64,000 nt of DNA from an uncultured delta proteobacterium (GCA_963745835.1 CAVUZH010000020.1:64001-128000), one strand, 5' to 3'; shown: positions 1 through 16,229, counted from the first letter of the stretch. Translations and numbers: made by a program. The notes: generated from the letters alone by a model not told the origin.

Positions 1-57
1 CTCTTTCTTGTCGTTTTGATTCTGCGCCCTCAAGGATTGTTCGGAGCGCGCTCATGA
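1..57 (+). CDS. Branched-chain amino acid ABC permease (LivH-like), 3' end only
   Basis: Frame 1 reads LFLVVLILRPQGLFGARS*, the typical LivH C-terminus; the stop overlaps the next start (ATGA). Confidence 0.8.
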   Translation, partial: LFLVVLILRPQGLFGARS

Positions 58-968
58 AACTAGCCGGCGCCGGAATATTACTCGCGGCCGGCTTCGCCGC
101 AATGCCGCTTTTCACCGCGCGCAACGATCTCCTGAATCTCGGCGTACAAATTTTTCTTGCCGTCGCCCTGGCGCAAAGCTGGAACTTGATCGGCGGCTAC
201 GCCGGACAAATTAATCTCGGCCATGCTGCATTTTTTGGCTTGGGCGCGTTGGTGACGCGCATGCTGTGGGTGAGCGGGATGCCGCTGCTTTTGTCGATCG
301 CTGCCGGCGCCGTGGTCGCTACAGCGTTTGGATGCTTGATCGGAGTCCCAGCCTTTCGGTTGCGCGGCGCATACTTTGCCATCGGCACTCTCGGCTTGGC
401 GGAAATTCTTCGCATCACGATCGGCAATGTTCTCCCCGAGATCTCCACGATCCGCGCCGCCGAGCTCGCTTCCTACAACATGCTGCCGCGCTACTATTTG
501 ACTCTCGGATTGGCTGTTCTGTGCGTCGCCGTCGTCGCCTGGATGGTTCCCTCGCGCGTGGGACTAGGCATTCGCGCCGTGCGCGAGGATGAAATTGCCG
601 CCGAAGCTACAGGCGTAAGCGCAGTGCGCCATAAACTTCTCGCTCTCGCCGTCTCCACGGCGATGGCCGGCCTCGCCGGCGGCGCCTTCGCCTACTACCA
701 CGTGAGCTATTACCCGCAGCATACTTTTTCGCCGGTCTGGACTTTCGATGCCGTGCTGATGTCTTTCATCGGTGGCGTTGGCACCGTTCATGGTCCGGTG
801 TTGGGCGCCCTCTTTTATGTGATCCTCAAGGAAGTGCTCGCGCTCCGCTGGGTCGAGTTCCACCTGATCATTTTCGGCGTGTTATTCATCCTGGTCGTGC
901 TGTTCCTGCCCGGTGGCTTGGTCGAAGCGTGGAACCGCGCCCGCCGGCTGATTGCCCGGCCACGCTGA
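54..968 (+). CDS. livM: Branched-chain amino acid ABC permease (LivM-like)
   Basis: WNLIGGYAGQINLGHAAFFGLG, LRGAYFAIGTL, AVREDEIAAEATGV and GGVGTVHGPVLGA motifs. Confidence 0.9.
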   Translation: MKLAGAGILLAAGFAAMPLFTARNDLLNLGVQIFLAVALAQSWNLIGGYAGQINLGHAAFFGLGALVTRMLWVSGMPLLLSIAAGAVVATAFGCLIGVPAFRLRGAYFAIGTLGLAEILRITIGNVLPEISTIRAAELASYNMLPRYYLTLGLAVLCVAVVAWMVPSRVGLGIRAVREDEIAAEATGVSAVRHKLLALAVSTAMAGLAGGAFAYYHVSYYPQHTFSPVWTFDAVLMSFIGGVGTVHGPVLGALFYVILKEVLALRWVEFHLIIFGVLFILVVLFLPGGLVEAWNRARRLIARPR

Positions 969-992
969 GCTTGGTACTGGATGCAACCTCGG

Positions 993-1189
993 TCGGCCAA
1001 TGAATTTTACCGCCGGAAATTCACCGGCGCCGATCCTCGACAAATCGATTCTCTGGACAATTTCATAAGCTGCCGTTAACCACCAAAGACGAGCTGGTTG
1101 AGGATCAACGAAAACATCCGCCGGTCGGCACCGACTTGACCTTTCCGGCAGATCGTTACGGTCCGCATCCACCAAACTTCGCGGGCGAT
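993..1189 (+). pseudogene. Phenylacetate-CoA ligase (PaaK-like) N-terminal fragment, truncated at the RAYT left inverted repeat
   Basis: Manual translation across two frameshifts gives SANEFYRRKF...KLPLTTKDELVEDQRKHPPVGTDLTFPADRY/VRIHQTS; it stops just before the expected GTTG loop. Confidence 0.7.
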
Positions 1190-2243
1190 TAGGGACGCTG
1201 TTGACTAACTGGACAAACTAGAATAGAGAGTGGAGAGAATCGATAAGGGCTACAGCGTATGCCGAGGCAGGCTAGACTGGATAGTCCCGGGACACTGCAC
1301 CATGTAATGATCCGAGGGATTGAAAAGAAGCGGATCGTCCTTGACGAGCAAGACCGAAAAGACTTTGTGCGCCGATTGGGTTTATTGGCCGTGGAAACGA
1401 AGACGGCGATCTATGCATGGGCGTTAATGAGCAACCATGCTCATTTGCTGGTTTGCAGCGGGACTGAGGGATTAGCCAAGTTTATGCGGCGATTTTTGAC
1501 CGGTTACGCGGTGAGTTATAACCTGCGCCATCGCCGGCATGGTCATCTTTTTCAGAACCGTTACAAATCGATGGTGTGCGACGGCGGCAGCTATTTCACC
1601 GAGCTGGTGCGCTACATCCACCTAAACCCGTTAAGAGTGGAGTTGGTAAAGGATTTGAGGCAACTGGAGAGATATCCCTATTGTGGACATGGAACAATCT
1701 TGGGAGCGCAATCAAACGCCTGGCAAGACCGCGACAGCGTGTTGGCCCAGTTTAGCCAACGCGAAGCGGAAGCGAAGGAGGCATACCGGCGCTATATTGC
1801 CGAAGGAGTCGTGCTGGGGCGGCGGCCGGAGCTGGTTGGGGGGAGTGGATCGGTTGGCGAATGGTTTGCGGTGAAATCCCAGCGGCGACGCAGGATTGAA
1901 GAGTCAACTGATGAGCGGATTTTGGGCAGCGGAGCATTTGTAAAGCGTGTTCTAAAAGAAGCAGATGCGCGGACACTCCGGCAAAACGCCTTCAAGAAAA
2001 CCAAACGCTATGCGGAGCGTGTCGTTGCCGCGGCCTGCAAGAAAGACGGCATATCGCTAACAGAACTCCGAAGCGGGAGCCGCCGTGGGAAACTGCCCGC
2101 CGTGAGAGTGAAGATCGTTCAGGGGCTTAGTGGAGGATTATGGCGTGCCCATCGCCGAGGTCGCTCGCCAAGTGGGTATCTCGACATCTGGAGTTTCAAA
2201 GATTCTGACACGAAGTTTGTCCAGCTAGTCAACAGCGTCCCTA
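1190..2243 (+). mobile_element. RAYT-like element with 30-bp terminal inverted repeats
   Basis: 1190-1219 TAGGGACGCTGTTGACTAACTGGACAAACT is the reverse complement of 2214-2243 AGTTTGTCCAGCTAGTCAACAGCGTCCCTA with 1 mismatch; no target duplication seen. Confidence 0.8.
1259..2228 (+). CDS. REP-associated HUH/Y1 transposase (RAYT-like) with C-terminal HTH; frameshift near 2122
   Basis: MPRQAR, HHVMIRG, LMSNHAHLL (HUH), GHLFQNRY and RYIHLNP. The alternative frame gives HTH tail LVEDYGVPIAEVARQVGISTSGVSKILTRSLSS* ending inside the right IR; the ORF track reads to 2266. Confidence 0.88.
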
Positions 2244-2518
2244 GCTGCCGTACTCTTACCCGCTAAATTCACAGGCAAAAACTGGATCTATGCGCTATGC
2301 TTTGGGTCATGGCAGTCATGCGCGAGAGATCCGGCCACCACGAATCAGAACGCTTTTGAACATGGTCTAGCGGGAATCGCGCAACCCCGAGTAAACGGCG
2401 CACTGCCGAACGATTCGTTGCTCCTGAAATGTGAAATTATTGAATCGATTGGAACTGTCCTTTTGAGTGTTCCGACATTGAACCGTTGAACGCTTGAACG
2501 GTTTGAACCGATCGACGC

Positions 2519-2638
2519 GTGTTTGCGTCGGATTTTCCGCACGAAATCGCGATCGAAGACGCACTGCATGAGGTCAATGAAATTCTCGAACGGAAAAATA
2601 GAAACCTAAGCACAAAACCATGATATATCTGACCTACC
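2519..2638 (+). repeat. Amidohydrolase-tail repeat, copy A (short)
   Basis: Encodes VFASDFPHEIAIEDALHEVNEILERKN; nucleotide similarity to copies at 5001, 6152 and 9820. Confidence 0.85.
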
Positions 2639-2800
2639 GTTATGATCGAGAAGCCTCTATGAGCATAGGCCATGGGTTGAAACAATTTTTGCTGGCACTC
2701 CAGCAGAACAAATTACGCAAAACGAGACACGCGCCGACGGTTGAAAACAACGGCCAAGGTTGAGCTGGTTGCCAGTTAGGCGACAAGGAAGGCGATAGTA

Positions 2801-3967
2801 ATGCTTGATGGTTACCAAATATTCGATGCCGATGCGCACACGATGATGAGCCCTAGGATGTGGGCCGACTTGCCTGAAGATTTCGCCGCTCGTCGACCCC
2901 GCGCGGTGCGGATTTCCGACGAAAGCGGACTCGGGTATTGGAACACGGGTTGGTATGTGGATGGTCGATTGGAGCCGCATCCGTTTGGACCAGGAGCCCA
3001 GTCTGCCAATACGCCTGCCATGGTACTGGATGAATTCAAACCGGAACCGGGGAAACCTCGCGCAATGATCGGCTCCACTGATTTCGCGGTACCCGCGGCG
3101 AGCCTCGATCTATCGGACCCGGAAGCACGGTTGCAAAATCTTGAGCGCATGGCGGTGGACATTCAGATGCTTTTCCCATCCACTCTCTATGCTCATATGA
3201 CTTCCGATCCCCGCCTCGATGCGGCTCTCTGTCGTTCGTACAATCGCTATGTCGGCGGTCAATGTCGGTCGGCGCCCAAACGGCTCAAATGGGCCGGGCT
3301 CCTGCCGATGCGCGATCAAGGCGAGGCCATCAAGGCTCTGGACGAGATGCAACATCTAGGGGCGAGCGCCGCGGTGGTATTCGGAACGGTCGGAGAACGG
3401 CTCCTCTCCGACCCGACTTTTACACCCATATGGGACGAATTCGCGCGCAGAACGCTGCCACTTTGCATACACATGGGTATGAGCTATCCGCCGTTTCAGG
3501 ACCTCTGCCATTCAATTCAGGACGCCAATATGATCGCCAAGGCACTGCCCGCGCAGCTCGCCTTTGTCGCCGTTGTCGGTAATAAGATGCTCGACCGCTA
3601 TCCGAGTCTCCGCGTCGCCTTTCTTGAATTCGGCGCCGAATGGATCTTTTACATGTTCGGCCGGATGGAGCATTACCTAAAGGTGAATCGCCGGCGTATG
3701 CCCAGCGCCGCGGCGCTGCCGCAAAAAGATGTCGAGGATTATGCCAAGTGCGGGAGAATTTTCATCGCTCCTGAGTCCGACGACGCCATGCTCGCTCAGG
3801 AGATCGCGCTGCTCGGCGCCAATCAGATTCTTTTCTCTTCGGACTTTCCGCACGGCGAAGGACGGGAAAACGCCGCCCGCGGTATCCTCGATCGCACCGA
3901 TCTCACCGCGGAACAGAAGCGCAAGATTCTTTACGACAATCCGGTCAATTTATTTGGATCGCCATAA
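2801..3967 (+). CDS. Amidohydrolase family protein (Amidohydro_2)
   Basis: DADAH metal motif, CIH, FLEFGAEW, SSDFPH. Confidence 0.9.
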   Translation: MLDGYQIFDADAHTMMSPRMWADLPEDFAARRPRAVRISDESGLGYWNTGWYVDGRLEPHPFGPGAQSANTPAMVLDEFKPEPGKPRAMIGSTDFAVPAASLDLSDPEARLQNLERMAVDIQMLFPSTLYAHMTSDPRLDAALCRSYNRYVGGQCRSAPKRLKWAGLLPMRDQGEAIKALDEMQHLGASAAVVFGTVGERLLSDPTFTPIWDEFARRTLPLCIHMGMSYPPFQDLCHSIQDANMIAKALPAQLAFVAVVGNKMLDRYPSLRVAFLEFGAEWIFYMFGRMEHYLKVNRRRMPSAAALPQKDVEDYAKCGRIFIAPESDDAMLAQEIALLGANQILFSSDFPHGEGRENAARGILDRTDLTAEQKRKILYDNPVNLFGSP

Positions 3968-3972
3968 TCTCG

Positions 3973-4974
3973 ATGAAAACGGCCAAGGAGTCTTCCATGA
4001 AGTGGTTTCGTCGATTTGCCTACTCTGCGGTCGTAACCTTCACGCTTCTTAGCGCGGGGCACACCGCATGGGCACGCACGGTCAAGGTCGGCATTCCTGG
4101 TCACAACGTTACGCAAGCAGCTTTCTATGTCGCCAAGGAGCGGGGCTGGTATCGGGATGAAGGTTTGGATGTCCAGCTGATCATGATGCCCGCGCCGGTG
4201 AGCAATTTGGCGTTGATCGCAGGCAACGTAGATTTCACTTCCGTTCCCACCGCAGCGATTACGGCTGCGTTGCGCGGCGCTCCGCTCCGGGTGCTCTTCA
4301 CAAGCTTCGATAAACCACTTTTCTGGCTCTACGCCAGGCCGGAGATCCGCGAGCTCAAGGAGCTGAAAGGCAGAAAGATCGGGACCAGCGGACTCGGCGC
4401 GGCGGAAACGCTGTTGCGTGAATTCCTTCAAAAGCACGGTTTTGACGTCAGCCGAGATATCACTTTATTGAACACGGGAGCGGATTCAGTTCGTTATGTT
4501 TCTGTTGTGGCGGGCTCGACCGATGCAACTGTGATTACGTTGCCGTGGAATTTTTCCGCCGAGGATGCAGGCCTGCGCAGTCTGGTTTCCTTTACGAAAG
4601 AGGACATGGTGCAGCTCACGGGAAGCGTGGTCGCCCGTGAAGGCATTCTGCGATCCGAACCCAGCGTGGTGGAAAAATTCATCGCCGCTACCATGCGCGG
4701 GCACTTGGCCCTGCGTGAAGATCGTACCGAAGCGATCGCCACGCTGACTCGCAACGTAAAAATTTCCGATGCTCTCGCCGCTAGAAGCTACGATGTGATT
4801 CGCCCGGCTTTGACGCTCGACGGTGGACTCAATGAAGAGTCTCAGCGGAAGGCTCTCGATCTAATTTTACAAGCGCAAAGCATCAAAGATGCGCCCCCGG
4901 CAGAGCGCTTCTTCGATTTTGCGATTCAAAGACGCGTGAGCGCCGATCTTAAGAAAAAAGGCTGGAAACCGTGA
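3973..4974 (+). CDS. ABC transporter substrate-binding protein (NMT1/SsuA-like)
   Basis: Signal peptide; VAKERGWYRDEGLDV and LKGRKIG. Confidence 0.88.
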   Translation: MKTAKESSMKWFRRFAYSAVVTFTLLSAGHTAWARTVKVGIPGHNVTQAAFYVAKERGWYRDEGLDVQLIMMPAPVSNLALIAGNVDFTSVPTAAITAALRGAPLRVLFTSFDKPLFWLYARPEIRELKELKGRKIGTSGLGAAETLLREFLQKHGFDVSRDITLLNTGADSVRYVSVVAGSTDATVITLPWNFSAEDAGLRSLVSFTKEDMVQLTGSVVAREGILRSEPSVVEKFIAATMRGHLALREDRTEAIATLTRNVKISDALAARSYDVIRPALTLDGGLNEESQRKALDLILQAQSIKDAPPAERFFDFAIQRRVSADLKKKGWKP

Positions 4975-5000
4975 AGATACCAACGGTGCAATCGACCGGC

Positions 5001-5214
5001 TCGCGATGGAAGACGCACTGCATGAGATCAATGAAATTCTCGAACGGAAAGATATTCAATGGTAAGCGCAAAGCCATGATACTCGGTGAAAACGCTAAGG
5101 GATTCTACAAACTCTAATGTGAGATTCCCGTTGCTCTGAAGATGCGAGCAGGGTGATTAAGAAAGCGCTATCACGGCCAAATAATTCTGTTGGTGCAACA
5201 CAAGACCCGACGCC
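5001..5214 (+). repeat. Amidohydrolase-tail + RAYT-end repeat, copy B
   Basis: AMEDALHEINEILERK...AMILGENAKGFYKL* followed by a tail ending CAAGACCCGACGCC. Confidence 0.85.
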
Positions 5215-5349
5215 ATGGCTGTTTCCTCTCACTTTTGACCGTGAAAAGTTAGTAGAGTTGGGCAAGTCTGACACGGGGGCGTTCTCCTTCTCGAGGAGTC
5301 TGTTGGAGAACCGTGAATTGATCTAGCGAGCGGGCACGGCATTCACCGA

Positions 5350-5390
5350 TTGACCGAGGGCGAATGCTGCTGTACAGTTAGATGTACAGC
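5350..5390 (+). promoter_or_regulatory. TA promoter with YefM-type operator
   Basis: TTGACC-17-TACAGT; GCTGTACA-GTTAGA-TGTACAGC has two TGTACA cores 12 bp apart, as in the yefM-yoeB operator. Confidence 0.65.
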
Positions 5391-5398
5391 AAAAGGAG

Positions 5399-5704
5399 GT
5401 GGGTTTGAAGCAATTATCGCTAACCGAAGCGCGCGCCAAATTGAGTAGCCTGGTGGCGGAAGTCGACAAGGGAAATGGGCCCATCGCGATTGCGCAGCGG
5501 TCGAAGGTCAAGGCACTGCTCGTCGATCCCGAATGGCATGGCCGGGTAGAGGAAGAACTCGCCCACTACCGAACTCGCTCGAGGCAATCGCCGTTAAAAC
5601 TGCGGGGCAGCATGACATTGACGGGAGACCTGGACGAAGCTCTCCAGGATCTCAAGAAAGAAAGAGAGCAGTCCCTCCAGGGCGTCATTGCCGCGCTCAA
5701 GTGA
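5399..5704 (+). CDS. Phd/YefM family antitoxin
   Basis: LSLTEARAKLSSLVAEV...PIAIAQRSKVKALLV; GGAGG RBS; overlaps the toxin gene. Confidence 0.85.
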   Translation: MGLKQLSLTEARAKLSSLVAEVDKGNGPIAIAQRSKVKALLVDPEWHGRVEEELAHYRTRSRQSPLKLRGSMTLTGDLDEALQDLKKEREQSLQGVIAALK

Positions 5705-6102
5705 TTTACGTTACCGATATGCACCCGCTGGTTTTCTGGTCATCAAATCGTAGACGGCGGTTGGGAAACCGCGCACGGCGTATCTTGCAAGAGACGGAGC
5801 AGGGCAAACACTCCATCATCGTGCCGATTGTCGTTCTGGAAGAAATCAACCGGCTGGTGGAAAGAAAAATCGTTCGCTTGGAGGTTCCGTTTCGTCGCTG
5901 GGCCGAAGAGCTTGAACGCTCGCCCAACTTTCAAGTCCAGGCTTATACGTTGGAAGTTTTGCTGCAATCGGTCTCGCTCGCGGCAATCCGCGACCCGGCG
6001 GATAGAGCCATCGTCGCAACAGCCCGCCAGCTCCGCTGCCCGCTCATCACCGCCGATGACCTTATTCGAGACGGTGAGTGGGTCGATACGGTTTGGGACT
6101 GA
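5701..6102 (+). CDS. VapC/PIN family toxin
   Basis: GTG start at 5701; YVTDMH, VVLEEI, RDPADRAIVATA, LITAD. Confidence 0.88.
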   Translation: MIYVTDMHPLVFWSSNRRRRLGNRARRILQETEQGKHSIIVPIVVLEEINRLVERKIVRLEVPFRRWAEELERSPNFQVQAYTLEVLLQSVSLAAIRDPADRAIVATARQLRCPLITADDLIRDGEWVDTVWD

Positions 6103-6151
6103 CCGCCGCGAGATTATTCTCTTGCATCGATAGAACGGTCCGGAGAGGTCC

Positions 6152-6393
6152 GTGTTTGGGTCCGAGTTCCCGCACGAAACGCGATGGAGACGCATTGCAT
6201 GAGATCAATGAAATTCTCGAACGAAAAAATGTCAAGGATAGGCACAAAGCCATGATACTCAGAGACAACGCCAAGAGATTCTACAACCTCTAGTGTGAGA
6301 TCCTCCCTGTTGCACTGAATATGCGAGCGGAGCGAGTAAGAAACTATTGGGAGGCGTCAAAAGTTCTGTTGTCGTAATGCAAGACCTCACCCT
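6152..6393 (+). repeat. Amidohydrolase-tail + RAYT-end repeat, copy C
   Basis: VFGSEFPHE..DALHEINEILERKNVKDRHKAMILRDNAKRFYNL* followed by a tail ending TAATGCAAGACCTCACCC. Confidence 0.85.
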
Positions 6394-6543
6394 GCGGCTT
6401 GCCCGGCCGCGTGCTGGTAATGCTGCAACAGTTCGCCGGCGTCGCCTATCGCGGTAGTAGTCTCGCGTCTAATCGGGTTCACAATCGTGCATCGGGATCC
6501 CAAGGACCGAGCTTGAGCACCCGGGTCATGCACGGGGCTGAGA

Positions 6544-6908
6544 GAACCCTTAGTCTTTTTCCATCGACCGTTTCCTTGGTAGAAGGATCGTGGCTCAAGC
6601 CCTACGCGCAGTCAGTTAGACTGTCGAGCTTCACGTCGAGCACTTTGCTCCGGACGCTAAAGACGAAGTTTGGCTGACTGAAGTCGGGAGCCGTGGTTGC
6701 AGATCGTATCCGCTACAGAGTCACTGAACGAACGGCGCTCGCATCCGGGAGAGTCAGGGCTTTTGTGCTGACTTCAAGCCAACTGCTAGGGGCCGAAATG
6801 GCTACTGGCTTTGTAAAAGCACTTCCACGGATGAAGCGGCTTATCGCCAACCACACTCCTCCATTCATTGGCCGGGTTTCAAGAAATGGGAAAGTCTCAC
6901 TGTTGTGA
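6544..6908 (+). pseudogene. VapC45-type PIN-like toxin, decayed
   Basis: EPLVFF/IDRFLGRRIVAQALR..*..EHFAPDAKDEVWLTEVGSRG/DRIRYR..RAFVLTS; internal stop and frameshifts. Confidence 0.7.
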
Positions 6909-7031
6909 GCCGTCGCCGAAATCGTCAAGAGGAATACGCTCGTATAAGCACCCGCTGGGACATAAGCGAGAATTTCATACTGCGAGATTGACTTGCCATC
7001 GGTAAGTTTCTCCCCTCTTCGTGCGAATGCC

Positions 7032-7086
7032 TTGACCATAGCCGGCCGGTACAGTACTTTAAGTAGACCAGAATTTTGGTCTACTT
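7032..7086 (+). promoter_or_regulatory. TA promoter with palindromic operator
   Basis: TTGACC-17-TACTTT; perfect 10-bp inverted repeat AAGTAGACCA-N6-TGGTCTACTT at 7061-7086. Confidence 0.6.
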
Positions 7087-7099
7087 GGAGGATGCGAGC

Positions 7100-7393
7100 A
7101 TGTCCAAAACAATGCCCATTTCAGAGGTTAAGACACGGTTGCCTGAGCTCGTCTCCGGCGTCGAGGAGCGGGAAGAAGAGATCGTCGTCACGCGTAACGG
7201 TAAGCCTGCGGCTGTATTGGTGAATTACAACGAGTACGAGCGCTTGAAAGCCACGCTGGATGTTTTGAGCGATCCGGTATCAATGAGGCAGATCGCTCAG
7301 AGTAAGAGCTTCTACGCTAAAGGGCGAGAAGGAGAATCCTTCGAAGCTGTGTTTGGCGATTCTCTGGTTACGCGTAAACGTCTAAAGAAATAA
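7100..7393 (+). CDS. Phd/YefM family antitoxin
   Basis: MPISEVKTRLPELV...IVVTRNGKPAAVLV..YERLKATLDVL. Confidence 0.9.
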   Translation: MSKTMPISEVKTRLPELVSGVEEREEEIVVTRNGKPAAVLVNYNEYERLKATLDVLSDPVSMRQIAQSKSFYAKGREGESFEAVFGDSLVTRKRLKK

Positions 7394-7728
7394 TGGCCGT
7401 CTACCGGCCCGATATCCCACCGCACGTGGCGGAAATCATCCGCCACTTACCTCCGGAATTAAAGCAGCGCATCAAGCGAGCAATCCGATCTTTAAGCGCC
7501 GATCCGTCCGCGGGTGAGCCTCTTATCGCAGAACTATCTGGACTCTGGAGCTTCAAAGTCAGACGATTTCGCATCATTTACGAATTGCATCGTAAAGCGC
7601 GGGTTCTCAGGATCTTCGCCATCGGCCATCGGCGGGAGGTTTATGAGCAACTGGCGGACCGATTGCGCCAGGTCGAGAGAGCGGAAATAGTGTGTTTGCA
7701 ACGAAGAGATAAATTCTTGCGTGTGTGA
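7393..7728 (+). CDS. RelE/ParE family toxin
   Basis: LSADPSAGEPL..LSGLWSFKVRRFRIIY..IFAIGHRREVY. Confidence 0.9.
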   Translation: MAVYRPDIPPHVAEIIRHLPPELKQRIKRAIRSLSADPSAGEPLIAELSGLWSFKVRRFRIIYELHRKARVLRIFAIGHRREVYEQLADRLRQVERAEIVCLQRRDKFLRV

Positions 7729-7874
7729 GAGCGCCCGTGCTTGCCGGGCGCATTTGGATCAACAAAGGCAACTTTTCAACCCAACTCGAGCGAGCCCGCG
7801 ACCACTTGGACTTCGATTCTTTCTCATCGATGTCTTTTAGAATTCATCAACTCCAATTTGACGCTAAGCCCTCC

Positions 7875-8132
7875 TCACACACCTGGCCAGGCTGGACTGA
7901 TTTGACTCGAGAGGCGGTAATCTAGCGCGAGGACTGCAAAGCCTCTGTCCGCCAGCCAGGGTCCCCAACTCTGCTTTTGTGAACCACGCAGCCAAGCGCC
8001 ACCGTGTAAACAAAGCAGTGCCGGATGCATACCGCCACTCGCAGGCAGATAGACGTCGGCGCAAAGATCTCCCTGCGGCCCGCCACCGTAAGGCACATCG
8101 ACGCGGATTTGAACGCTGGTATTGTTGTTCAT
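7875..8132 (-). pseudogene. Alpha/beta hydrolase (HSL-type esterase) N-terminal fragment
   Basis: DVYLP, LHGGAW and LDYRLS are present, but it ends after 85 aa, before the catalytic Ser. Confidence 0.75.
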
Positions 8133-8144
8133 ATCACCGATATC

Positions 8145-9272
8145 TCAGGCGACTTTGTATTCCTTAATCGCATCCTCGTTTAACTCTAGACCGAGTCCAG
8201 GCTTTTCGGTGAGAGTGATCCAACCGTTCACCGGTTCCGGCACCTCCTTGTAGACGACGTTCCAGGTAAGCCAATTGGTGATGTGAACTTCGGCGCGCCA
8301 GCCATTGGGCACCGCGGCGTGCAAATGGACGTCGAAATGGTGACCGTTGCCGATGGGCAGGTTGAAGGCATGGGCCAGGGCGGCGGCTTTCATGCCCATG
8401 GTGAAACCGCCCACCACGAGCACATGGAAATTCAGGAAGTCTACCGAATCTTGCTTCACCAACTCGGCAAGCTTTGAAAGATTATCGTATTGACCGGCGG
8501 CAATCGGAATACTCGTCTGCTTGCGCAGCTGGGCCAGCAGATGTGGATCGTTATACACAATCGGCTCTTCGAACCACATCAGGTTATAGGGCTCGAGGCG
8601 CTTGCACCAGCGCACGGCGGCTTCGAGTTTCATTAGACAGTTGGCGTCTACCATCAACTCCGCCTTGTCGCCGACAGCCTCGCGCACCGCTCTAACTCTT
8701 GCTTCGTCTTCCGCTGGGTCGTCTTCGCGATGCTCGCCGCTGGCACCGGAGGGATCAGTGGCGCCGCGGATGTTCGATCGGCCGACCTGGATTTTGAGGC
8801 GTGTTTCGCCGCGGCCTGCCCAATATCTTGCCGCTTCCACCAATTCCTCGCGGCTGTAGGCGCGCAAACCGAAAGTAATGTAAGCCGGAACTGATTTCTG
8901 TGCGCCGCCGAGAAGACGCCAGACCGGCACTTTGTAAAACTTTCCCTTGATGTCCCAGAGCGCCACGTCGATGGCACTTACCGCGAAGTTCCAGACCCCG
9001 GCATGGGCGCGATTGTTGAATTTCCACAGCATCTGATGCATCAAGCGCTCGTGTTCCAGAGGCGTCTGGCCTTTCAAGAAGGGGACAAGGTCTTTGAGAA
9101 TGAAAGCCGCGGTGGCGGAATACATGGGGCCGGCGATCTGCGATAGGCCAATGATACCGTCATCAGTCGTGATTTTTAGTATGCGCGCTCCGGTTCGCAC
9201 GGGCTGTTTGAAGAGCGGCGGTGTAACTTGGATATTTTGCAGCTCGATAATTTCGATTTCGGCAATCTTCAA
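8145..9272 (-). CDS. Mandelate racemase/muconate lactonizing enzyme family protein
   Basis: SAIDVALWDIKGK, LMVDAN, WFEEP, IPIAAG, KPGLGLE; probable TTG start after GGAGA. Confidence 0.9.
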   Translation of the reverse strand: MKIAEIEIIELQNIQVTPPLFKQPVRTGARILKITTDDGIIGLSQIAGPMYSATAAFILKDLVPFLKGQTPLEHERLMHQMLWKFNNRAHAGVWNFAVSAIDVALWDIKGKFYKVPVWRLLGGAQKSVPAYITFGLRAYSREELVEAARYWAGRGETRLKIQVGRSNIRGATDPSGASGEHREDDPAEDEARVRAVREAVGDKAELMVDANCLMKLEAAVRWCKRLEPYNLMWFEEPIVYNDPHLLAQLRKQTSIPIAAGQYDNLSKLAELVKQDSVDFLNFHVLVVGGFTMGMKAAALAHAFNLPIGNGHHFDVHLHAAVPNGWRAEVHITNWLTWNVVYKEVPEPVNGWITLTEKPGLGLELNEDAIKEYKVA

Positions 9273-9417
9273 GATTAGTCTCCTTCGGTCTTTGGGGGCT
9301 ACCATCGGAATTAACAGGTAGCGCGACGAGTAAGCAACAGGTATAAACGATCTTGATTAAAAGAGGAAAGCAGAGGATCAGGTATTAGAGATTTGACCCC
9401 ATCACCGCATTGCCATC

Positions 9418-9782
9418 ACGCCTTCACGCGTTTCTTCCTGGAAATGTGCATCGACCAGGTGAGATTTATGGGAGGGCTCGTGCAACCGGATCGTTTGGGT
9501 ATCCGCATCCGCATTTGGGCCGAGGAAGAGATTCGACTCGGCCATCTTCCTGCGAAATCAGGAAATATTCTCGAAGCCGTGCTCTATCGCGGTGAGCTGC
9601 CGCGCGGTGAAATGGCGGCAATAGTCGGCACGGGAGACCGCCAAGCGCGCCGGATCATCTCAGCTCTGGTTGACAAGGGTGTATTGCAATCCGAAAGCGC
9701 GCGCGCGCCGCTGCGCCTCGCATTTCCAGCTGCGCTCGCGTCGCGCTGGATGCCGGGACTTTTCCCTGAAAGAATCGAATAA
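9418..9782 (+). pseudogene. Fic family protein, C-terminal fragment
   Basis: FTRFFLEMCIDQVRFM...LYRGELPRGE...RQARRIISALVDKGVL..PLRLAFP..WMPGLFP; no Fic motif or proper start; begins just after ATTTGACCCC. Confidence 0.7.
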
Positions 9783-9819
9783 GACTGGATAACGCCTTCC
9801 CTCGGTTTGCCGCTGCTGC

Positions 9820-10012
9820 GCACGAAATCGCGATGGAAGACGCATTGATTGAGATCGATAAAATTCTCGAACGAAAAGATTTCAACGATAAGCACGAAGC
9901 CATGATACTCGGGTAAAAGCGAAGAGATTCTACAAAGAAGCCAGCGGAGTGATTAAGAAAGCGTTGTCAGGAGGTCAAATAATTCTGATGTCGCAACGCG
10001 TCACCTGACCCC
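9820..10012 (+). repeat. Amidohydrolase-tail + RAYT-end repeat, copy D
   Basis: HEIAMEDALIEIDKILERKDFNDKHEAMILG; the tail reads SGVIKKALSGGQIILMSQRVT* ending ACCTGACCCC. Confidence 0.85.
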
Positions 10013-10213
10013 ATGTCTGCCTCGTCGACAGCGCAGGGCATTTATTTGCTCGGCTCCGGTGCATGGGGCGTCAAAGATATCCTTGCGGCGGAAAACGATC
10101 TGGGTGTTCCCGTGGTTAATCCGGTTGCCGCCCGGGTTTGGTGCGTGCAAAAGCTTTTGAGAGTCAGGAATTTGTTAAAGGGAGCGAGCCGATTACTGGA
10201 GGAATTACCTTAG
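10013..10213 (+). pseudogene. Arylmalonate decarboxylase/maleate isomerase-like C-terminal fragment
   Basis: AQGIYLLGSGAW...ENDLGVPVVNPVAARVW...RLLEELP; begins immediately after TGACCCC. Confidence 0.6.
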
Positions 10214-10352
10214 AGAGCCTTGCAGTACCCGACCGAGCAGGAAACCGTGATCAGTCCGGTGAACAAACGACATGGCTGGTCAGTCAATAGAGCACAACAG
10301 CCGCATTCAACTCTTAGGGGCCTCACCATAACGGATACTGCTTGTTAGCCGA

Positions 10353-10377
10353 ATGTTGCAGTACAAGACCTGGCCCC
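10353..10377 (+). repeat. Isolated RAYT-type end motif
   Basis: ATGTTGCAGTACAAGACCTGGCCCC, matching the ends of repeats B-D. Confidence 0.6.
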
Positions 10378-10560
10378 GCGTGACCTCTCCTAACCCCCGC
10401 TTTCACTGACACCCGACGCCTCTTTGGAACTGAGCGCCAATTCTATCGCAAAGCGGCGCTGCGCGAGGCGGTCACTGCAAAAAGCGTTTCACACACATGC
10501 TAAGTCATAGTACAAAGTATCCATATTATACTATTATTACTACACTGGGGAGGATAAACG

Positions 10561-11172
10561 ATGCTACGTCTATACGGCGCCGCGAGATCTCGTGCCGTGC
10601 GCACCTTGTGGATGCTCGGTGAGCTAGGACTGAACTACGACCACAAGGATTACCTGCCCCGCGCACCGGAGACGCGGACTCCGGAGTTTCGCGCGTTGAA
10701 TCCCAATGGCCGCGTACCGGTGATAGACGACGACGGCTTCGTGCTGTCGGAATCGATGGCGATCAATTTGTATCTCTCGAAGAAGTACGAGAGCCCGCTG
10801 TATCCGTCGGATCCCAGAAACGAGGCGCTTGCCTGGCAGTGGAGCCTATGGGAGACCGACCGGCTCGACCGTCAGATCGTGAACTACGTCAGGCATACCA
10901 CGGAGTTTCCGGAGGCCGAGCGCAAAAAGGAGATCGCCGAGGCCGCATGGCAGCAAGTGACGGAATCGTTCGATGTGCTGGAGGCTGCGCTCGCGAAAGC
11001 GGAGTGGCTTGCCGGCCCTGCATTTTCAGTCGGCGATCTCAACGTCGCCGCAGCGCTTTACCGTGCGTTGGCGATCGATACCAAGAAATGGCCACGCACG
11101 CAGGCCTGGCTCCACCGCTGCTGGGAGCGCCCGGCAGCGAAGCGGGCGCGCGCCATGCGCGAAGGCAAATAG
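10561..11172 (+). CDS. Glutathione S-transferase family protein
   Basis: SRAVRTLWML, LNPNGRVP, LSESMAINLYL, FSVGDLNV. Confidence 0.93.
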   Translation: MLRLYGAARSRAVRTLWMLGELGLNYDHKDYLPRAPETRTPEFRALNPNGRVPVIDDDGFVLSESMAINLYLSKKYESPLYPSDPRNEALAWQWSLWETDRLDRQIVNYVRHTTEFPEAERKKEIAEAAWQQVTESFDVLEAALAKAEWLAGPAFSVGDLNVAAALYRALAIDTKKWPRTQAWLHRCWERPAAKRARAMREGK

Positions 11173-11332
11173 AACTGGGGTAAGAGGCTTTTATATCAGC
11201 CCGGAGAGGGAGGTGCGGGTCGGACCAAGGCAAGTTCTTGATTTAGCGATGTAAGATAGCATAAAAGGCATCGGCTAAGCGCTTAGAAGGCCATTTTTGT
11301 GGCCGAAAGATAGCGCCTAAAGGGAACTTCCG

Positions 11333-12133
11333 ATGCCCCGAGCAAACCGCCACTTTCTTCCCGGTCATGTCTGGCATATAACCCACCGCTGTCATCAAAA
11401 GCAGTTCCTATTAAAGTTTCCCCGCGATCGTCGTTGTTATGTGTATTGGGTCTTTGAAGCCAAGAAGCGATTTGGTCTTTGCGTACTGAATTACATCGTG
11501 ACTTCTAACCACGTTCATCTTTTAGTGAAAGACACAGGTGGAAACGTTATCGCAGCCGAGCATGCAGTTCATCGCCGGTCGAACCGCGCAGGAGTACAAT
11601 CAGCGAAAGGACGCCACGGTGCATTCTGGGAAGACCATTATCATGCCACAGCCATCCAAGCTGACGAGCACCTGCATCGCTGTCTGGTCTAATCGACCTG
11701 AATATGGTTCGCGCAGGGGTAGTGAGCCATCCATGAAATGGGTGCACAGCGGTTACCGAGAGATTCAGAGACCTCCCAAGCGATACGCGATCATCGACCT
11801 CCGGGAATTAACGGGATTGTGCGGCTTTGCCGATTCGGGAGATTTTCAATTAGCGCATCGCCAGTGGGTGGAACAGACGCTTGAGCGCGGGCGCACAGTG
11901 CGTGAGGACCGCTGGTCGGAGGCCATTGCGGTCGGCAGTTTGGCATTTGTTGAGAGCGTCAAAAGTGAGCTAGCGGCAGAGCGATACATCGCGCAGTTGA
12001 GGAGAAAGACGGAGCCTATGCGTTGCGTGAACGGAGTGAGGCTTACAACGGAGATTTCGGCGGTGAAAGTGAGCCGCTAACGCTAGAAAACACGGTCTTA
12101 TGGAACGAAAACGCTGCAGCGGCAGAGACATAA
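11333..12133 (+). pseudogene. RAYT-like HUH/Y1 transposase with multiple frameshifts
   Basis: MPRANR, WHITHRC, TSNHVHLL, FWEDHYHAT, IDLNMVRAG and WVHSGY are spread over several frames. Confidence 0.85.
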
Positions 12134-12363
12134 TTTTTCTCATCGCTGCGTCGCTAGGTACCCTTACCTACCCTTAATTAAATCCTCGCCACATGGCATG
12201 AGCTGCTTGGTATCTCCGAATCGCACGATTGTTGGGAGAATAGCCTATAGTTATCGTCGTGCGAACGATCCTCGCTGAAGAGTATGACAACCCGCGAAGA
12301 TTGACCCAGGTTGAATAACCTGCTCCACAAGACATGTAGAAGCCGTCGCTTACGCTTTGTCCA

Positions 12364-12661
12364 CTAACGCCGGGTGGCCATGATATAGAAGCCCCAACGA
12401 CGAAAAAATCGACTTTGACATGCAGGCATCCATTTCTGCGCAGCTGAACCCATGAATTGGTGGTATAACTCCGCTCTTATGGTATCAATACGCCAACGCT
12501 GATCGCCCTGGTACAATTGACCCGTCCCTGCGCCCAAACATTTCCCCATCAGAGGATACAAAATTAAACGCGTCTTGTTCTTGGTATCGGTAATTCTGAG
12601 CTAAAAGCTGCTCGCTGTTCAGCATCACCCCTACTAACACCAGCACTCGCAGTAAAATCAT
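12364..12661 (-). pseudogene. Small secreted hypothetical protein, probable frameshift near 12563
   Basis: Signal-peptide-like MILLRVLVLVGVML joins LYPLMGKC...RWGFYIMATRR if one T is removed from a run. Confidence 0.4.
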
Positions 12662-12684
12662 TTGTTGCCTCCACACTTTCTGTC

Positions 12685-13317
12685 TCAGCGCCCGTAAGGT
12701 TTAGGTGGAGCGTTAGGTGGAGGAGTAGGTTGAGGACGGGCGTTCGTGTTTTGATCGCGGTGCGTTCCTTTGTCACCATGCGGGGTGCCGTCATATCTAC
12801 CGCAGTCCTGGCCACGCTGAGGTTGACAGTCGGGCGTTATGAACGCGCCTCCGCTACTAGGTGGTATGCCAGGAACGCCTTTATAACCCGGTAGGTTCGG
12901 ATTCCCGCCTTCGACGCCAGGCAAGCCCGGCATGTTAAAGACCGCTCCCCCCCCCTGCTGCCCCTGCTGCTGATTCGCGGCTTGCATTTCCGCAAGAAGT
13001 TGCTTCCCTTGGGGGTGAGTAGCCATCGGGTGCCACCCTTGTTGGGTCAAAATATATAGGACTCCGCCGCGGTCGGCCACCCAGAAGCCGGTTTTCTGAT
13101 CTTGCATAGCCTGCCAAGGCACGTGGTAGTACCAGCTCCGTCCACTGCCGGTGCTGTAGCAGCCGACAAGCTGGTTTGTGCCTTGTTGATATATGCACTC
13201 GCCTTTCCTGTATTGCTGTGGCGTCCGTTGCTGTGGTTGGGCATCAGCACTCTCAGTCAGCGCGATGGCGAAAACAATCGCGAGACAGGCGACAACTACC
13301 CGGACTAATTTTTTCAT
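12685..13317 (-). CDS. Secreted hypothetical protein with Gln/Gly/Pro-rich C-terminus
   Basis: AAGGAG RBS, clear signal peptide, two Cys pairs, low-complexity tail. Confidence 0.7.
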   Translation of the reverse strand: MKKLVRVVVACLAIVFAIALTESADAQPQQRTPQQYRKGECIYQQGTNQLVGCYSTGSGRSWYYHVPWQAMQDQKTGFWVADRGGVLYILTQQGWHPMATHPQGKQLLAEMQAANQQQGQQGGGAVFNMPGLPGVEGGNPNLPGYKGVPGIPPSSGGAFITPDCQPQRGQDCGRYDGTPHGDKGTHRDQNTNARPQPTPPPNAPPKPYGR

Positions 13318-13380
13318 CTACTTTCTCCTTCAAGGTTAAACGCGGTGCTCAACGCTAGTCACATTCTCGAACAGATATCA

Positions 13381-13452
13381 AGAGACTGCCATCATCGGCC
13401 AGAGACTGCCATCATCGGCGAGAGACTGCCATCATCGGCCAGAGACTGCCAG
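13381..13452. repeat. 20-bp tandem repeat x3.5
   Basis: AGAGACTGCCATCATCGGC(C/G) at 13381, 13401 and 13421, partial at 13441. Confidence 0.95.
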
Positions 13453-13492
13453 CAGTTGCCAGTCTTTCATCCCAATGAGAAAGCGCCCGAGG

Positions 13493-14540
13493 GGGTCAAA
13501 TCTTTACGTTTGTAATCCCGCCGTTTCGGTGTATAGGAAGCACCATGGCTCGGCCATTACGGATCGCCTATGCTCACGCCTTCTATCACGTAGGTTGCCG
13601 TGGTAACGATCGGAGAGAGATCTATAAGGACGATATCGATCGGACTGTCTTTTTGGAAAAGCTTCAGAGCTCGTTAGAAATCTATGGAGTTAAGCTTCAC
13701 GCCTACGTGCTCATGAGCAATCATTTTCATCTCATCATCGAGACGCCCAAGGCGAACCTGTCTGAATTCATGAGGCATTTCAATATTGCATACACCGGCG
13801 CCTATAACCGCCGGCATAAGCGAGTAGGGCATCTCTATCAGGGACGCTATAAAGCTATACTCGTGGACAAAGACAGCTATTTGTCGGAGCTGAGCCGTTA
13901 TGTGCACGTCAATCCTGTGAGGGTGGGCACGCAGAAGAGCAAAAGCCCTGATCAACAGCTTCGGCTATTGGAGAAATATCGCTGGAGTAGTTTGGCGGGA
14001 TACCTAGCATCCCATCAGAAACAAGCATGGGTTATTTACTACGCGGTGCTGGGCCAGTTTGGTGGTTCCAGGAGCAAGTACAGAGAGTTTGTCGCTGAGG
14101 CGATCCAGCAGGGATACGCCACGCCGTGGAAGGATCTCAAAGCGCAGGTTGTACTGGGCAGTGCTGAGTTTTTTACCAAAGTGAAAGCACGAGTCAGTCA
14201 TACCGGGTCGCGCCGTGAACAGCCGGCTATGAGGGCCTTTGAAGCAATCGATGCCGACGATGTGGTGAACCGGGTAAGCCGCTATTTGAAGGTCAAGGCG
14301 CAGGAATTAACAAAGAAACGGACACCTTACCGAGACTCCCGGTCGATTGCCATGGAGTTGATGTATCGTTATAGCAAGATCAGTCAGGAAGAGATCGGCA
14401 AGCGATTCGGTGGTCTCGATTACAGCGCGGTGAGTCGGGAGAGAAAGAGGCTAAGAGAGCGAATGCAAGTAGATCGAAACTTACGTGAGTCGGCGCAAGC
14501 AATCGATGCGATGCTTATCACAAAGGTAAAGATTTGACCC
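13493..14540 (+). mobile_element. RAYT-like element with 24-bp terminal inverted repeats
   Basis: GGGTCAAATCTTTACGTTTGTAAT versus ATCACAAAGGTAAAGATTTGACCC (2 mismatches); the right IR contains the stop codon. Confidence 0.8.
13545..14537 (+). CDS. REP-associated HUH/Y1 transposase with C-terminal DnaA-domain-IV-like HTH
   Basis: MARPLR, YHVGCRGN, LMSNHFHL, GHLYQGRY, RYVHVNP, YRWSS; C-terminal RSIAMEL..SQEEIGKRFGGLDYSAV. Confidence 0.92.
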   Translation: MARPLRIAYAHAFYHVGCRGNDRREIYKDDIDRTVFLEKLQSSLEIYGVKLHAYVLMSNHFHLIIETPKANLSEFMRHFNIAYTGAYNRRHKRVGHLYQGRYKAILVDKDSYLSELSRYVHVNPVRVGTQKSKSPDQQLRLLEKYRWSSLAGYLASHQKQAWVIYYAVLGQFGGSRSKYREFVAEAIQQGYATPWKDLKAQVVLGSAEFFTKVKARVSHTGSRREQPAMRAFEAIDADDVVNRVSRYLKVKAQELTKKRTPYRDSRSIAMELMYRYSKISQEEIGKRFGGLDYSAVSRERKRLRERMQVDRNLRESAQAIDAMLITKVKI

Positions 14541-14573
14541 GGCGACGATGTTCGCATGGAAGATCATTGAAGT

Positions 14574-15366
14574 TCACGAGTGTAGTCTCTTTGCGAGCAC
14601 GGGGATGATTTTCTCGATGACGCGCTTTTGGCCTTTTGGCGTTAGGGCAATGTCACCAGTACCAGTGGATCTAATTTCATTTGTCGCAAGAAGGCGCGAT
14701 AGGCCAGTTGCAAGACTGTTGGGAGTGTTATTCTTGGCGTGTTTTGAGCAATTCATCTTTGGGCAGCCGATGGCCCTCCGCATGGTTGAGAAGTAATAGC
14801 ATTTCCTCCGGCGCGCTTATCTTCTGATCGAGCACCAACGGAACGCCATCCATTTCGTGAATCAGCGAGTATTCGAGTTGAACGATCTGGGCGATTGTGT
14901 CGGCTATTATTGCTTTGTCTTTATTCCATGCGAGTCGCAGGAATTCTGCAAAAATCCATTTTGCGGCGTGCACCATGAACATCGAGTCCATGTAGTCGGC
15001 AGTATAGAACGTAGAGATGTGTACCGAGCCGCGATCCGAGCGGAATTTATATAAGAGTCTAATTGCGCGGCAGATGTGATAACGATCCTGTAGGTTTAGA
15101 GCATGCTGTTTCTGCGGGTTGGCATCCTCCATTTTGCCGCACAATTCGGCAGGTAGTTGGCTGTGCGTTACGATGCCGGTATCGAGTTGATAGCAGCCGC
15201 GAGCGATGGCCTCGCAGAGCCGTCCACTGTCTAGCTCGGTAGGTTGCCAGTCGCCAGCCAGGAACCGCTGCTGCATTTGGACGTAACTATCAACAGCGGC
15301 CTTCGCCATATCGGGATCAACAACCTTCCCCAGTTCAGCTGTTAATTGTGCAGAACTCAGCGGCAT
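14574..15366 (-). CDS. Putative HEPN-like domain + winged-helix protein (frameshift near 14743)
   Basis: Helical N-domain with GRLCE and RSDRGSVH; the wHTH-like tail ..LSRLLATNEI..IALTPKGQKRV is in the adjacent frame. Confidence 0.55.
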
Positions 15367-15368
15367 TA

Positions 15369-16229
15369 TTACTTAGTCCCCGTTTTTCGCTTTCGGGTGG
15401 TCTTCTTATCGGGATTCCATTGATCAGGTATCTCTGAATTTAATGCATCATTCAGGTATTTGATAGCCGCCTCGCGCCCTGGCTGCGTAAGTTTCAGGTT
15501 GTCGTCTTCGTCTTGGTTGAAGCCTTTCTTCCTCGCCAACCATCTTCTTGCATTGCCGGAGTTATCCAGAATCTTTGCGGCGTCGAGCATTTTGATCAGA
15601 TCCGCTTTCGGCGTGTTTGTTCTGCCGTGGCATTCATGTGCGTAAAGAAACAAATAAGTAAGCCGCCGTAGGAAGTCCGCGCCGGTCTCTGCCTTTAGTC
15701 GATTGTCCTTCAACTCTAGGGCTGTTCCATTGGCATGAAATAAACGCATGATTCTGGTCTTGTCGACAACGTCAGTATGAACGGCGGCCGCGTCTCCCGT
15801 CTGCGGCGTTTCCGACGCTGGATCAGGTGGTGGAGGTATTGGGAGCGATCCTTGTGCGTCCACTAGGGAATTGGTTGATATAGATCGGGCCAATGACGGC
15901 GGTCGGGTGGCGCCACGCTGGAGGAACACGTCCCCAAGTACGCCGCCTAGACCCTGTATGGCGTTGTCGGTCAGTGATGCTTCGAAACTGCGGCTGTTGC
16001 GATCCTCACGATAGGTGAGAGTATTTCGTTGAAGTGTTGGAGCCAGCGAAGGAGAAGTGGGACCCGGATCGGCATTGGGCCGTTCGCCGACCTTTGCGCC
16101 GCATTCCACGCATGCAAGGGCCTCAGATTCGAGAATCTCATGGCAGTTGAGGCATCGAGCTTGCGTTCCGCAAAATTTACAAAAAGAGCCTCGTTCCGAC
16201 AGCGCCTGAGCGCAGGTTGGACAATTCAT
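15369..16229 (-). CDS. Double zinc-ribbon protein with C-terminal winged-helix-like region
   Basis: Four CxxC motifs at the N-terminus; LKLTQPGREAA near the C-terminus; 2 bp from the next gene. Confidence 0.7.
   Translation of the reverse strand: MNCPTCAQALSERGSFCKFCGTQARCLNCHEILESEALACVECGAKVGERPNADPGPTSPSLAPTLQRNTLTYREDRNSRSFEASLTDNAIQGLGGVLGDVFLQRGATRPPSLARSISTNSLVDAQGSLPIPPPPDPASETPQTGDAAAVHTDVVDKTRIMRLFHANGTALELKDNRLKAETGADFLRRLTYLFLYAHECHGRTNTPKADLIKMLDAAKILDNSGNARRWLARKKGFNQDEDDNLKLTQPGREAAIKYLNDALNSEIPDQWNPDKKTTRKRKTGTK

Follow-up and report, generated by a model that had tools for sequence, protein, structure and literature searches.

TIRYTs are genes resembling those of the REP (repetitive extragenic palindrome)-associated tyrosine transposases (RAYTs) that lie between inverted repeats sharing the motif GGGGWSAS (Di Nocera et al. 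2013, PMC3733652; Quentin et al. 2018, PMC6006769). Those of subclass 2.1 are described there as ending in a Bac_DnaA_C or helix-turn-helix (HTH) domain (HTH_23, HTH_28; Quentin et al. 2018, PMC6006769), and copies of the terminal inverted repeat (TIR) as occurring solo, paired or grouped in some genomes (PMC3733652, PMC6006769). The spread of REP-type repeats and their Y1 transposases (RAYTs, TIRYTs), and the consequences for genomes, are only partly understood, and TIRYTs have been little studied. Here we report on a stretch of 64,000 nt from an uncultured delta proteobacterium (GCA_963745835.1, CAVUZH010000020.1:64001-128000), hereafter the window, in which four degenerate units, A to D, each join the tail of an amidohydrolase gene to a solo TIR. 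The window corresponds to G000:C20:64001-128000, where G and C denote genomes and contigs throughout; C20 is a 201-kb contig of the 7.3-Mb genome G000, which is estimated to be 97% complete with 9.3% contamination. Part of contig C2 recurs on C21 with 100% identity (for example C2:6209-6508 = C21:2115-2414), and this, together with the contamination estimate, indicates some redundancy or a second strain in the assembly.

The four units lie co-oriented on the + strand, at the places given for them in a preliminary description of the window (Table 1). Their likeness is far above chance, with BLASTN identities of 71-86% among pairs: 83% over 108 nt for A and C (E 3e-23), 84% over 166 nt for B and C (E 2e-42), 86% over 118 nt for C and D (E 2e-29) and 71% over 223 nt for B and D (E 3e-28). 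A fifth copy, X, was found at C20:48182-48435, 16 kb upstream of the window, and is 85% identical to C over 236 nt. The genome-wide search that the preliminary description had proposed, carried out with BLASTN and a profile, revealed no copy in G000 besides X and A-D. Its account of the surroundings was also borne out: the units carry a dead amidohydrolase 3' tail, the intact amidohydrolase gene of the window (2801-3967) ends in a different tail, and the co-oriented copies bound blocks of genes (A-B, B-C and C-D). The tail profile gave no further strong match on C20.

Logan contigs from public soil and rhizosphere runs span the junctions of units A-D with 0-1 differences (for example 2217-4360, 4721-5173, 6147-6443, 9825-10207 and 9432-9936), and the junctions are therefore not assembly artefacts. 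One of the public runs may be the source sample. Unit-to-unit joints in the public contigs were considered as evidence of excision and rejected, since other copies or related strains mapping chimerically account for them; in the joint from 2500 to 9822, the letters between both sides are those of copy X. These joints are neutral on excision, speaking neither for nor against it.

Each unit comprises a 5'-truncated amidohydrolase tail, 25-30 nt of native spacer and ~85 foreign nt that end in the solo TIR, with a terminus that reads ...GCAAGACCTGACCC (also written ...TTGTCGCAACGCAAGACCTGACCCC). The tail represents the last 200-500 nt, the C-terminal coding end, of a single Amidohydro_2 gene. An intact gene of the parent type is present in G095, a genome of another genus, where it encodes 340 amino acids, matches the tail at 93% amino acid identity over 124 residues and sits in a binding-protein/amidohydrolase/MetE-like operon. 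The names Fic-like, HAD-like, PrpD-type, DUF3500-type, ChaN-like, MetE-like and PaaK-like were assigned from translations alone. More distant intact genes show 80% and 76% identity, and the parent gene is retained in G095, G064 and G104. Past the stop codon, the first ~30 nt alone match the parent spacer (score 30, against 17.2 ± 2.3 and a maximum of 27 for shuffled sequences). The idea that the 3' part is the start of the next gene in the parent operon, the MetE-like gene, was rejected (score 18, against 15.9 ± 2.0 for shuffles). Beyond the TIR itself, the ~85 nt past the spacer had no relative outside the units in 90 family genomes at E<=0.1.

When unit C was compared with 61 relatives, full units were found in three sister species: three copies inside 5.2 kb in G001, three in G004 and one in G005. 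Comparison of the 3' part with the 90 family genomes added three copies in G089, a member of another genus, and a metagenome scan with a degenerate 35-nt pattern gave two short contigs and no more. Most of the relatives' assemblies are fragmented; G012, G018, G067 and G086 entered the tallies only, and no claim is based on them. The resulting multiple alignment, likewise suggested beforehand, holds 17 copies, from two genera (G000, G001, G004, G005 and G089) and the two metagenome contigs. These copies represent 13 lineages (X, A, B, C = G5_a, D, G1_a = G4_a, G1_b = G4_b, G1_c = G4_c, G89_1, G89_2, G89_3, M24 and M25).

The alignment demonstrated a constant right end and varying left ends. On the right, likeness ends 0-16 nt past GACCC, with the exceptions of A (decayed), G89_2 (mutated), G4_c (cut by a later event) and M24, a shorter variant that likewise ends in ...GTCTGACCCC. 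Left junctions, visible in 11 of the 13 lineages (M24 is cut off by the end of its contig, and the reference is G89_3), fall at ~10 positions of the parent gene (222, 258, 329, 358, 361, 384-387, 391, 408, 412 and 417), and no flanking tetranucleotide is common to them in donor or recipient sequence. In the five genomes with 15 of the tails, no close copy of the parent gene's first 649 nt is present; the matches there are at paralog level (65-74%), along with two short ones (85 and 37 nt). The longest copy, G89_3, has ~170 tail codons and an extra ~100 nt of spacer, and its branch, the shortest of all, marks it as closest to the ancestral state.

The copies form a star-like tree. Their core identity is mostly 75-88%, within or across genomes (the exceptions are A, M24 and the truncated G1_c/G4_c), and orthologs are no closer to each other than paralogs (79% for C and G5_a, 83% for G1_a and G4_a). 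The star-like tree and the similar distances of orthologs and paralogs show that the burst is old and that the copies decayed later. The comparisons thus show that a single fusion of a gene tail to a TIR was multiplied in an old burst. The copies had earlier been regarded as either old or produced by error-prone copying; the former stands, and the latter does not, given the orthologs in sister species and the shape of the tree.

The final 23-25 nt of the unit agree at about 20 of 23 positions with the TIRs of a Y1 element at C2:18694-19591 (C2:18.7-19.6 kb), which is flanked by GGGGTCAGGTCTTG... and ...CAAGACCTGACCC. The best non-unit matches of a unit-end profile in G000 are themselves TIRs (C15:25587, C2:8641-8665 and C2:19565-19592). 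No inverted partner of the unit TIRs was found in window positions 1-13000, and the unit TIRs are thus solo. Further downstream, the window contains a TIRtron (Table 1) whose ends also match the end of the unit and are inverted copies of each other (GGGGGTCAAATC...). The product of its Y1 gene (13545-14537) matches Pfam Y1_Tnp with E 8.9e-14 and, at residues 238-299, Bac_DnaA_C with E 1.5e-8, and HFH and GRYKA motifs are seen in the translation. Its homologs number 6405 at E<=1e-20, labelled REP-associated tyrosine transposase or RayT, and both source names giving an organism read 'Candidatus Binatia bacterium'. A frameshifted Y1 copy at 1259-2266 matches Y1_Tnp with E 2.3e-8, and Bac_DnaA_C was not detected in it. 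The NCBIfam model REP_Tyr_transpos matches all three Y1 genes of the window at 66.5, 56.2 and 39.6 bits, below its cut-off of 80, and Y1_Tnp has 12 matches in G000. The TIRtron gene combines a RAYT-homologous Y1 domain, flanking GGGGWSAS inverted repeats and a subclass 2.1 C-terminus. The unit-end repeat and the flanked Y1 genes are of the published TIRYT/TIRtron class.

Gene tails other than that of the amidohydrolase also end at the motif, and three further families of this kind, all with sense-strand tails, were found in G000. The tail of a racemase-type gene ends at the solo TIR 'E' (Table 1), and the intact gene with E is located at C2:5628-6472. An array on C13 contains five binding-protein tails with staggered left ends at ~562.3, 564.5, 566.7, 571.8 and 628.8 kb, in which the stop codon lies ~5 nt ahead of AAAGACCTGACCCC. 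This array is situated among putative toxin-antitoxin-like genes and genes for the protein domain called TIR (names from translations), beside remnants of the Y1 element R1 (Table 1). The third family, D1, is a pair of 288-nt direct repeats that are 99% identical, bracket a binding-protein gene and a putative ChaN-like gene, and lose their likeness 5 nt past AGACCTGACCC. The motif of D1b is within the start of the next gene and is therefore a fortuitous site. G005 has D1b alone, with ~1.5 kb of other DNA at the place of D1a, and D1a is a recent copy. Four unrelated gene tails thus end within ~5-16 nt of one 11-nt motif, pointing to the motif rather than the gene. The pattern AGAYYTGACCC has 27 matches, against 14.8 expected by chance, and across the genome an upstream repeat ends at 11 of 166 motif sites, compared with 16 of 1028 sites for eight permuted motifs.

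Truncated sequences start 8-17 nt past the TIR ends of X, D, G5_a and D1a. X is followed by the final ~206 nt of a binding-protein gene, of which G001 and G004 have intact versions; D by the final ~188 nt of the racemase-type gene; G5_a, the G005 ortholog of C, by no more than the final ~70 nt of that same racemase-type gene; and D1a by a truncated C2-like sequence. A PrpD-type/binding-protein block begins 16 nt past E in G004 and ~150 nt past AAGATTTGACCC in G001. The arrangement in G005 is an intact racemase-type gene, a block and then a second, diverged copy of the racemase-type tail. Unit C and G5_a have lineage-specific substitutions in common near the right end, and their downstream flanks differ at once after it, so the break lies at the unit end and not inside the unit. 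A copy in G089 is collinear with the closest relative, G093, only to the stop codon ahead of the unit, and the G093 sequence past that stop has no match in G089, G095 or G090. Another repeat, the 47-nt direct repeat seg1 (94%; window 5293-5339 and C20:47973-48020), brackets ~21 kb without a counterpart in G005, where both seg1 flanks are joined (SDR-type gene, seg1, toxin-antitoxin pair, unit). The difference between the two genomes stems from insertion, or else from deletion between short repeats. GC skew along the contig was noisy, and no orientation relative to replication was obtained.

The preliminary description had read the 3' part of the units as the C-terminal, HTH-encoding end of a RAYT gene with its right inverted repeat, and had suggested a role like that of attC in integrons. 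The former reading is correct for the extreme 3' end, which resembles a Y1 right inverted repeat, and fails for the preceding 60 nt, which contain no recognisable RAYT C-terminus or HTH. As Y1 C-terminal coding sequence, these 60 nt were rejected on the basis of 28 local alignments (four units against seven TIR-adjacent sequences, namely both ends of two Y1 genes and three other motif sites), which gave z from -0.8 to +2.2, mostly ~0. None of five peptides from the 3' part matched Pfam at E<=10, and the SGVIKKAL frame differs from the frame in which the C2 Y1 gene crosses its repeat. The attC-like role is not supported. Seven single-stranded DNA or RNA folds (five top and two bottom strands) were no better than those of shuffled sequences (z -0.40 to +1.24), the consensus structure of 13 sequences is weak (-6.5 kcal/mol) with an unfavourable covariation term (+0.28), and in the search for an IntI-type recombinase none of the 13 Phage_integrase matches in G000 was on C20. 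Rfam gave no match in window positions 1-16000 at E<=1, and a terminator scan, with 8 predictions in total against 9.8 expected, found none on the + strand inside the units.

Several other classes of element were considered and rejected. A miniature inverted-repeat transposable element (MITE) does not fit, as the left ends differ by lineage and there is neither an inverted copy of the right end nor a duplication; a REP or REPIN does not fit, as the unit end has no palindrome; and IS200/IS605-type ends do not fit, as there is no hairpin and no tetranucleotide common to the ~10 left junctions on the donor or recipient side. A Tn3 transposase, considered since the repeat begins GGGG, was absent from G000, and the reverse transcriptase family RVT_1 had no match there. 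The Y2 (IS91) transposase gave no match, and control genomes gave no match either. Upstream of X and of A lie TTGAAC repeats, which were considered as an element end or a protein-binding array and rejected, as they belong to a genome-wide 9-nt intergenic repeat with 119 sites and are not specific to the units. These tandem repeats have the form (T/G)(T/G)GAACNNN, occur at 2437-2510, at C20:48095-48165 and in a great many other intergenic stretches of G000, and often flank genes as facing pairs.

The combination of one constant and one variable end fits a putative one-ended HUH or rolling-circle mobilisation. We hypothesize, with about as much belief as doubt, that repeat-anchored one-ended copying by TIRYT enzymes made the units. 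A TIRYT acting in trans would cut at the outer TIR edge, on single-stranded DNA, and the fixed cut end would be joined elsewhere. A variable length of upstream DNA would be carried or copied along, and downstream DNA would sometimes be lost. Such a one-ended process, similar to the read-through of IS91/ISCR elements, would produce 5'-truncated, co-oriented and locally clustered copies as well as deletions starting at the TIR edge. The gene blocks between the units would then be DNA caught between insertions and deletions, and not cassettes with a recombination site of their own. It is possible, though doubtful, that solo TIRs in general are one-ended launch sites that copy upstream gene tails and cut out downstream DNA, and that TIRYTs are not inert domesticated relics. 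With the same reserve, such TIRYT action may be what builds cassette-like toxin-antitoxin and metabolic arrays, as an HUH-based counterpart of ISCR and integron shuffling. The 99% D1 copy, which is absent from the sister species, suggests that the process may still be active in this soil lineage.

A number of points weigh against this hypothesis. The TIR is without a hairpin, unlike the substrates of the studied Y1 enzymes. The search for a clean empty site among the relatives gave none, and in such orthologous regions as are present synteny is just lost at the unit. D1a replaces ~1.5 kb and is no simple insertion, and D1 is on the opposite strand to the units, which means that co-orientation is not absolute. 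The enrichment of repeat ends at the motif is ~4-fold only, and several of the 11 sites are ends of Y1 elements. Substitutions in the tails are also biased by codon position, with minor alleles at 0.089, 0.054 and 0.129 for positions 1, 2 and 3. Some of the divergence therefore arose while the tails were constrained as coding sequence, contrary to what a burst of purely dead copies would lead one to expect.

The main rival to copying by TIRYTs is that the units are passive relics of segmental duplication, Campbell-type integration of circles, and homologous or illegitimate recombination in a plastic region poor in genes, in which the TIRs are mere hot spots and no transposase is required. A precedent for repeats as hot spots comes from Salmonella, where REPs are found at duplication joins. 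In the present region other direct repeats flank segments as well, as seg1 does with its ~21 kb not found in G005; D1 can be derived by tandem duplication and one deletion; units are located at synteny breaks on either side; and the control motifs also give some repeat ends. Passive events are, however, expected to leave 5' and middle fragments and copies without a TIR, and none of these was seen against the 15 tails in five genomes. The convergence of four unrelated gene tails on positions ~5-16 nt from the same 11-nt motif speaks against such events too, as does the break between C and its G005 ortholog, which falls at the unit end. We regard this explanation as rather unlikely. A different possibility is that cargo and unit together form a mobile, integron-like cassette, with the unit or its TIR serving as the site of TIR-to-TIR site-specific recombination. 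This would agree with the small blocks bounded by units, two toxin-antitoxin pairs included, with the PrpD-type/binding-protein block that follows a TIR in both G004 and G001 in differing contexts, and with the similar array of binding-protein tails on C13. It is improbable in view of the lack of a fold, of covariation and of an integrase on C20, and in view of the blocks themselves, where one gene or several occur, in either orientation, together with gene remnants. Moreover, ordinary metabolic genes occupy the 18 kb between X and A, the units have random left junctions, and the distance from a TIR to the PrpD-type block's left edge is not fixed.

Direct repeats of a gene 3' end that flank foreign blocks could alternatively be attL/attR relics of small integrative elements that repeatedly targeted the amidohydrolase 3' end and brought a replacement tail, tandem integrations yielding a ladder of tails. 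The codon-position bias would suit tails that once encoded a working C-terminus, and G005, with its intact racemase-type gene and second diverged tail after a block, has the arrangement that such integration would leave. Nevertheless, no integrase is nearby (none on C20), no intact target gene is found at either array end in G000, G001, G004, G005 or G089, the left ends are of ~10 different kinds, and the common motif of unrelated gene tails points to the motif and not to the gene, which makes this origin very improbable. Retro-copies, for which motif-ending transcripts would be reverse-transcribed from the 3' end, stop at random and be integrated like processed pseudogenes, appear to us the least probable of all. 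They would share the fixed 3' end, the random 5' truncation, the star-like tree and the sense-strand orientation of the tails in all four families, but G000, at 97% completeness, has no RVT_1 although D1 is recent, the units contain no terminator-like site on the + strand, and the D1b motif lies within the coding start of the next gene, with no obvious transcript end.

Table 1. Features of the window, with positions counted from its first nucleotide
Feature	Position	Strand	Description
Unit A	2517-2740	+	Amidohydrolase tail 2517-2625, then strongly diverged 3' part (nhmmer E 1.4e-5)
Unit B	5001-5214	+	Tail from parent position 417, ~85 foreign nt, degenerate solo TIR 5191-5214
Unit C	6125-6392	+	Tail begins ~20 nt past the PIN toxin stop; solo TIR 6370-6392; ortholog in G005 (L023)
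Unit D	9819-10012	+	Tail and solo TIR 9989-10012; racemase-type 3' remnant starts 14 nt further on
Racemase-type tail family	10026-10377	+	Last ~188 nt of gene, spacer, solo TIR 'E' 10354-10377
D1a	18313-18600	-	99% copy: last ~230 nt of putative DUF3500-type gene plus 58 nt
D1b	20878-21165	-	Original of D1a, end of intact gene 20951-22138
TIRtron	13491-14540	+	Y1 gene 13545-14537 with Bac_DnaA_C, between GGGGGTCAAATCTTTAC (13491-13507) and GTAAAGATTTGACCC (14526-14540)
R1 Y1 element	1190-2243	+	29-bp inverted repeats; directly upstream of unit A; frameshifted copy
Solo TIR, AGATTTGACCCC type	9387-9400	+	Directly ahead of a 129-amino-acid open reading frame without family match
Block A-B	2801-4974	+	Intact Amidohydro_2 gene (2801-3967) and NMT1-type binding-protein gene
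Block B-C	5399-6102	+	Phd/YefM antitoxin and PIN toxin pair; 47-nt seg1 (starts 5293) ahead
Block C-D	7076-9305		Phd/ParE pair 7076-7728 (+), enolase-superfamily gene 8145-9305 (-)

The repeats of R1 are unrelated to the GACCC motif. R1 is probably an active insertion sequence, because several copies at 96-98% amino acid identity are present in the genome. The frameshift of the window copy lies near 2127-2129, where public contigs have variants one base shorter, and the element breaks the start of a putative phenylacetate-CoA-ligase-type gene (1000-1190) in a region rich in gene remnants. A third Y1 remnant, REP_Tyr_transpos-like at 39.6 bits, is spread over two frames at 11333-12080. A 20-nt tandem repeat, AGAGACTGCCATCATCGGCC, present in ~3.7 copies (13381-13454), directly precedes the TIRtron's left inverted repeat. 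The 129-amino-acid open reading frame that follows the solo TIR at 9387-9400 can be read as a putative truncated gene. Outside the window, solo AAGATTTGACCC repeats at C20:48667-48693 and C20:54200-54226, each preceded by the small palindrome CTTAAGTACTTAAG, constitute a separate TIR-bearing mini-family, and in a genome of another genus (L035, G100:C36) two inverted GCAAGACCTGACCCC repeats lie back to back ~30 nt apart at ~1500-1565, forming a MITE-like empty TIRtron.

If TIRYTs did make the units, these would be natural footprints of the enzymes, sharply fixed on the side of the repeat, random on the other side and accompanied by deletions, left at four unrelated genes and in one recent event. 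The footprints predict, in concrete and testable form, where the enzymes cut and that strand transfer is one-ended. They would provide the first natural read-out of the TIRYT cut position, placing it 5-16 nt beyond GACCC, and would account for the origin, by way of short repeats, of gene-tail pseudogenes and mosaic islands in large soil genomes. Should the prediction fail, the units would be ordinary pseudogene debris, of value mainly as a caveat for annotation.

Among the known systems, TIRtrons and their TIRYTs have in common with this locus the RAYT-related Y1/HUH genes, the GGGGWSAS inverted repeats, a gene 3' end that overlaps the repeat, and scattered solo or paired TIRs. The TIRs in the available portions of the published accounts are single, paired or grouped, and those portions make no mention of a TIR that drags along 200-500 nt of an upstream gene, nor of deletions that start at a TIR (PMC3733652, PMC6006769). 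The REP/REPIN-RAYT systems are similar in having a single-copy Y1 gene between inverted short repeats that also occur downstream of genes; the present repeats differ in that they have no palindrome or hairpin and no GTAG tag, number tens rather than hundreds of copies, and accompany genes that score below the cut-off. Like attC sites in integrons, the units are repeats in one orientation at the 3' side of each gene block, with toxin-antitoxin pairs among the blocks. They are, however, without the imperfect-palindrome fold, the R''/R' core sites in attC arrangement and IntI, and their blocks are multi-gene and of mixed orientation. IS91/ISCR elements and the complex class 1 integrons associated with HUH enzymes have one constant and one variable end, and in the latter a neighbouring segment (the 3'-conserved segment) is repeated in direct orientation, variably truncated, around foreign genes. 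The enzyme class here would be Y1, and the unit copies are without a transposase gene; the constant end, the variable end, the truncated segments in direct orientation around foreign genes and the HUH type of enzyme are the same.

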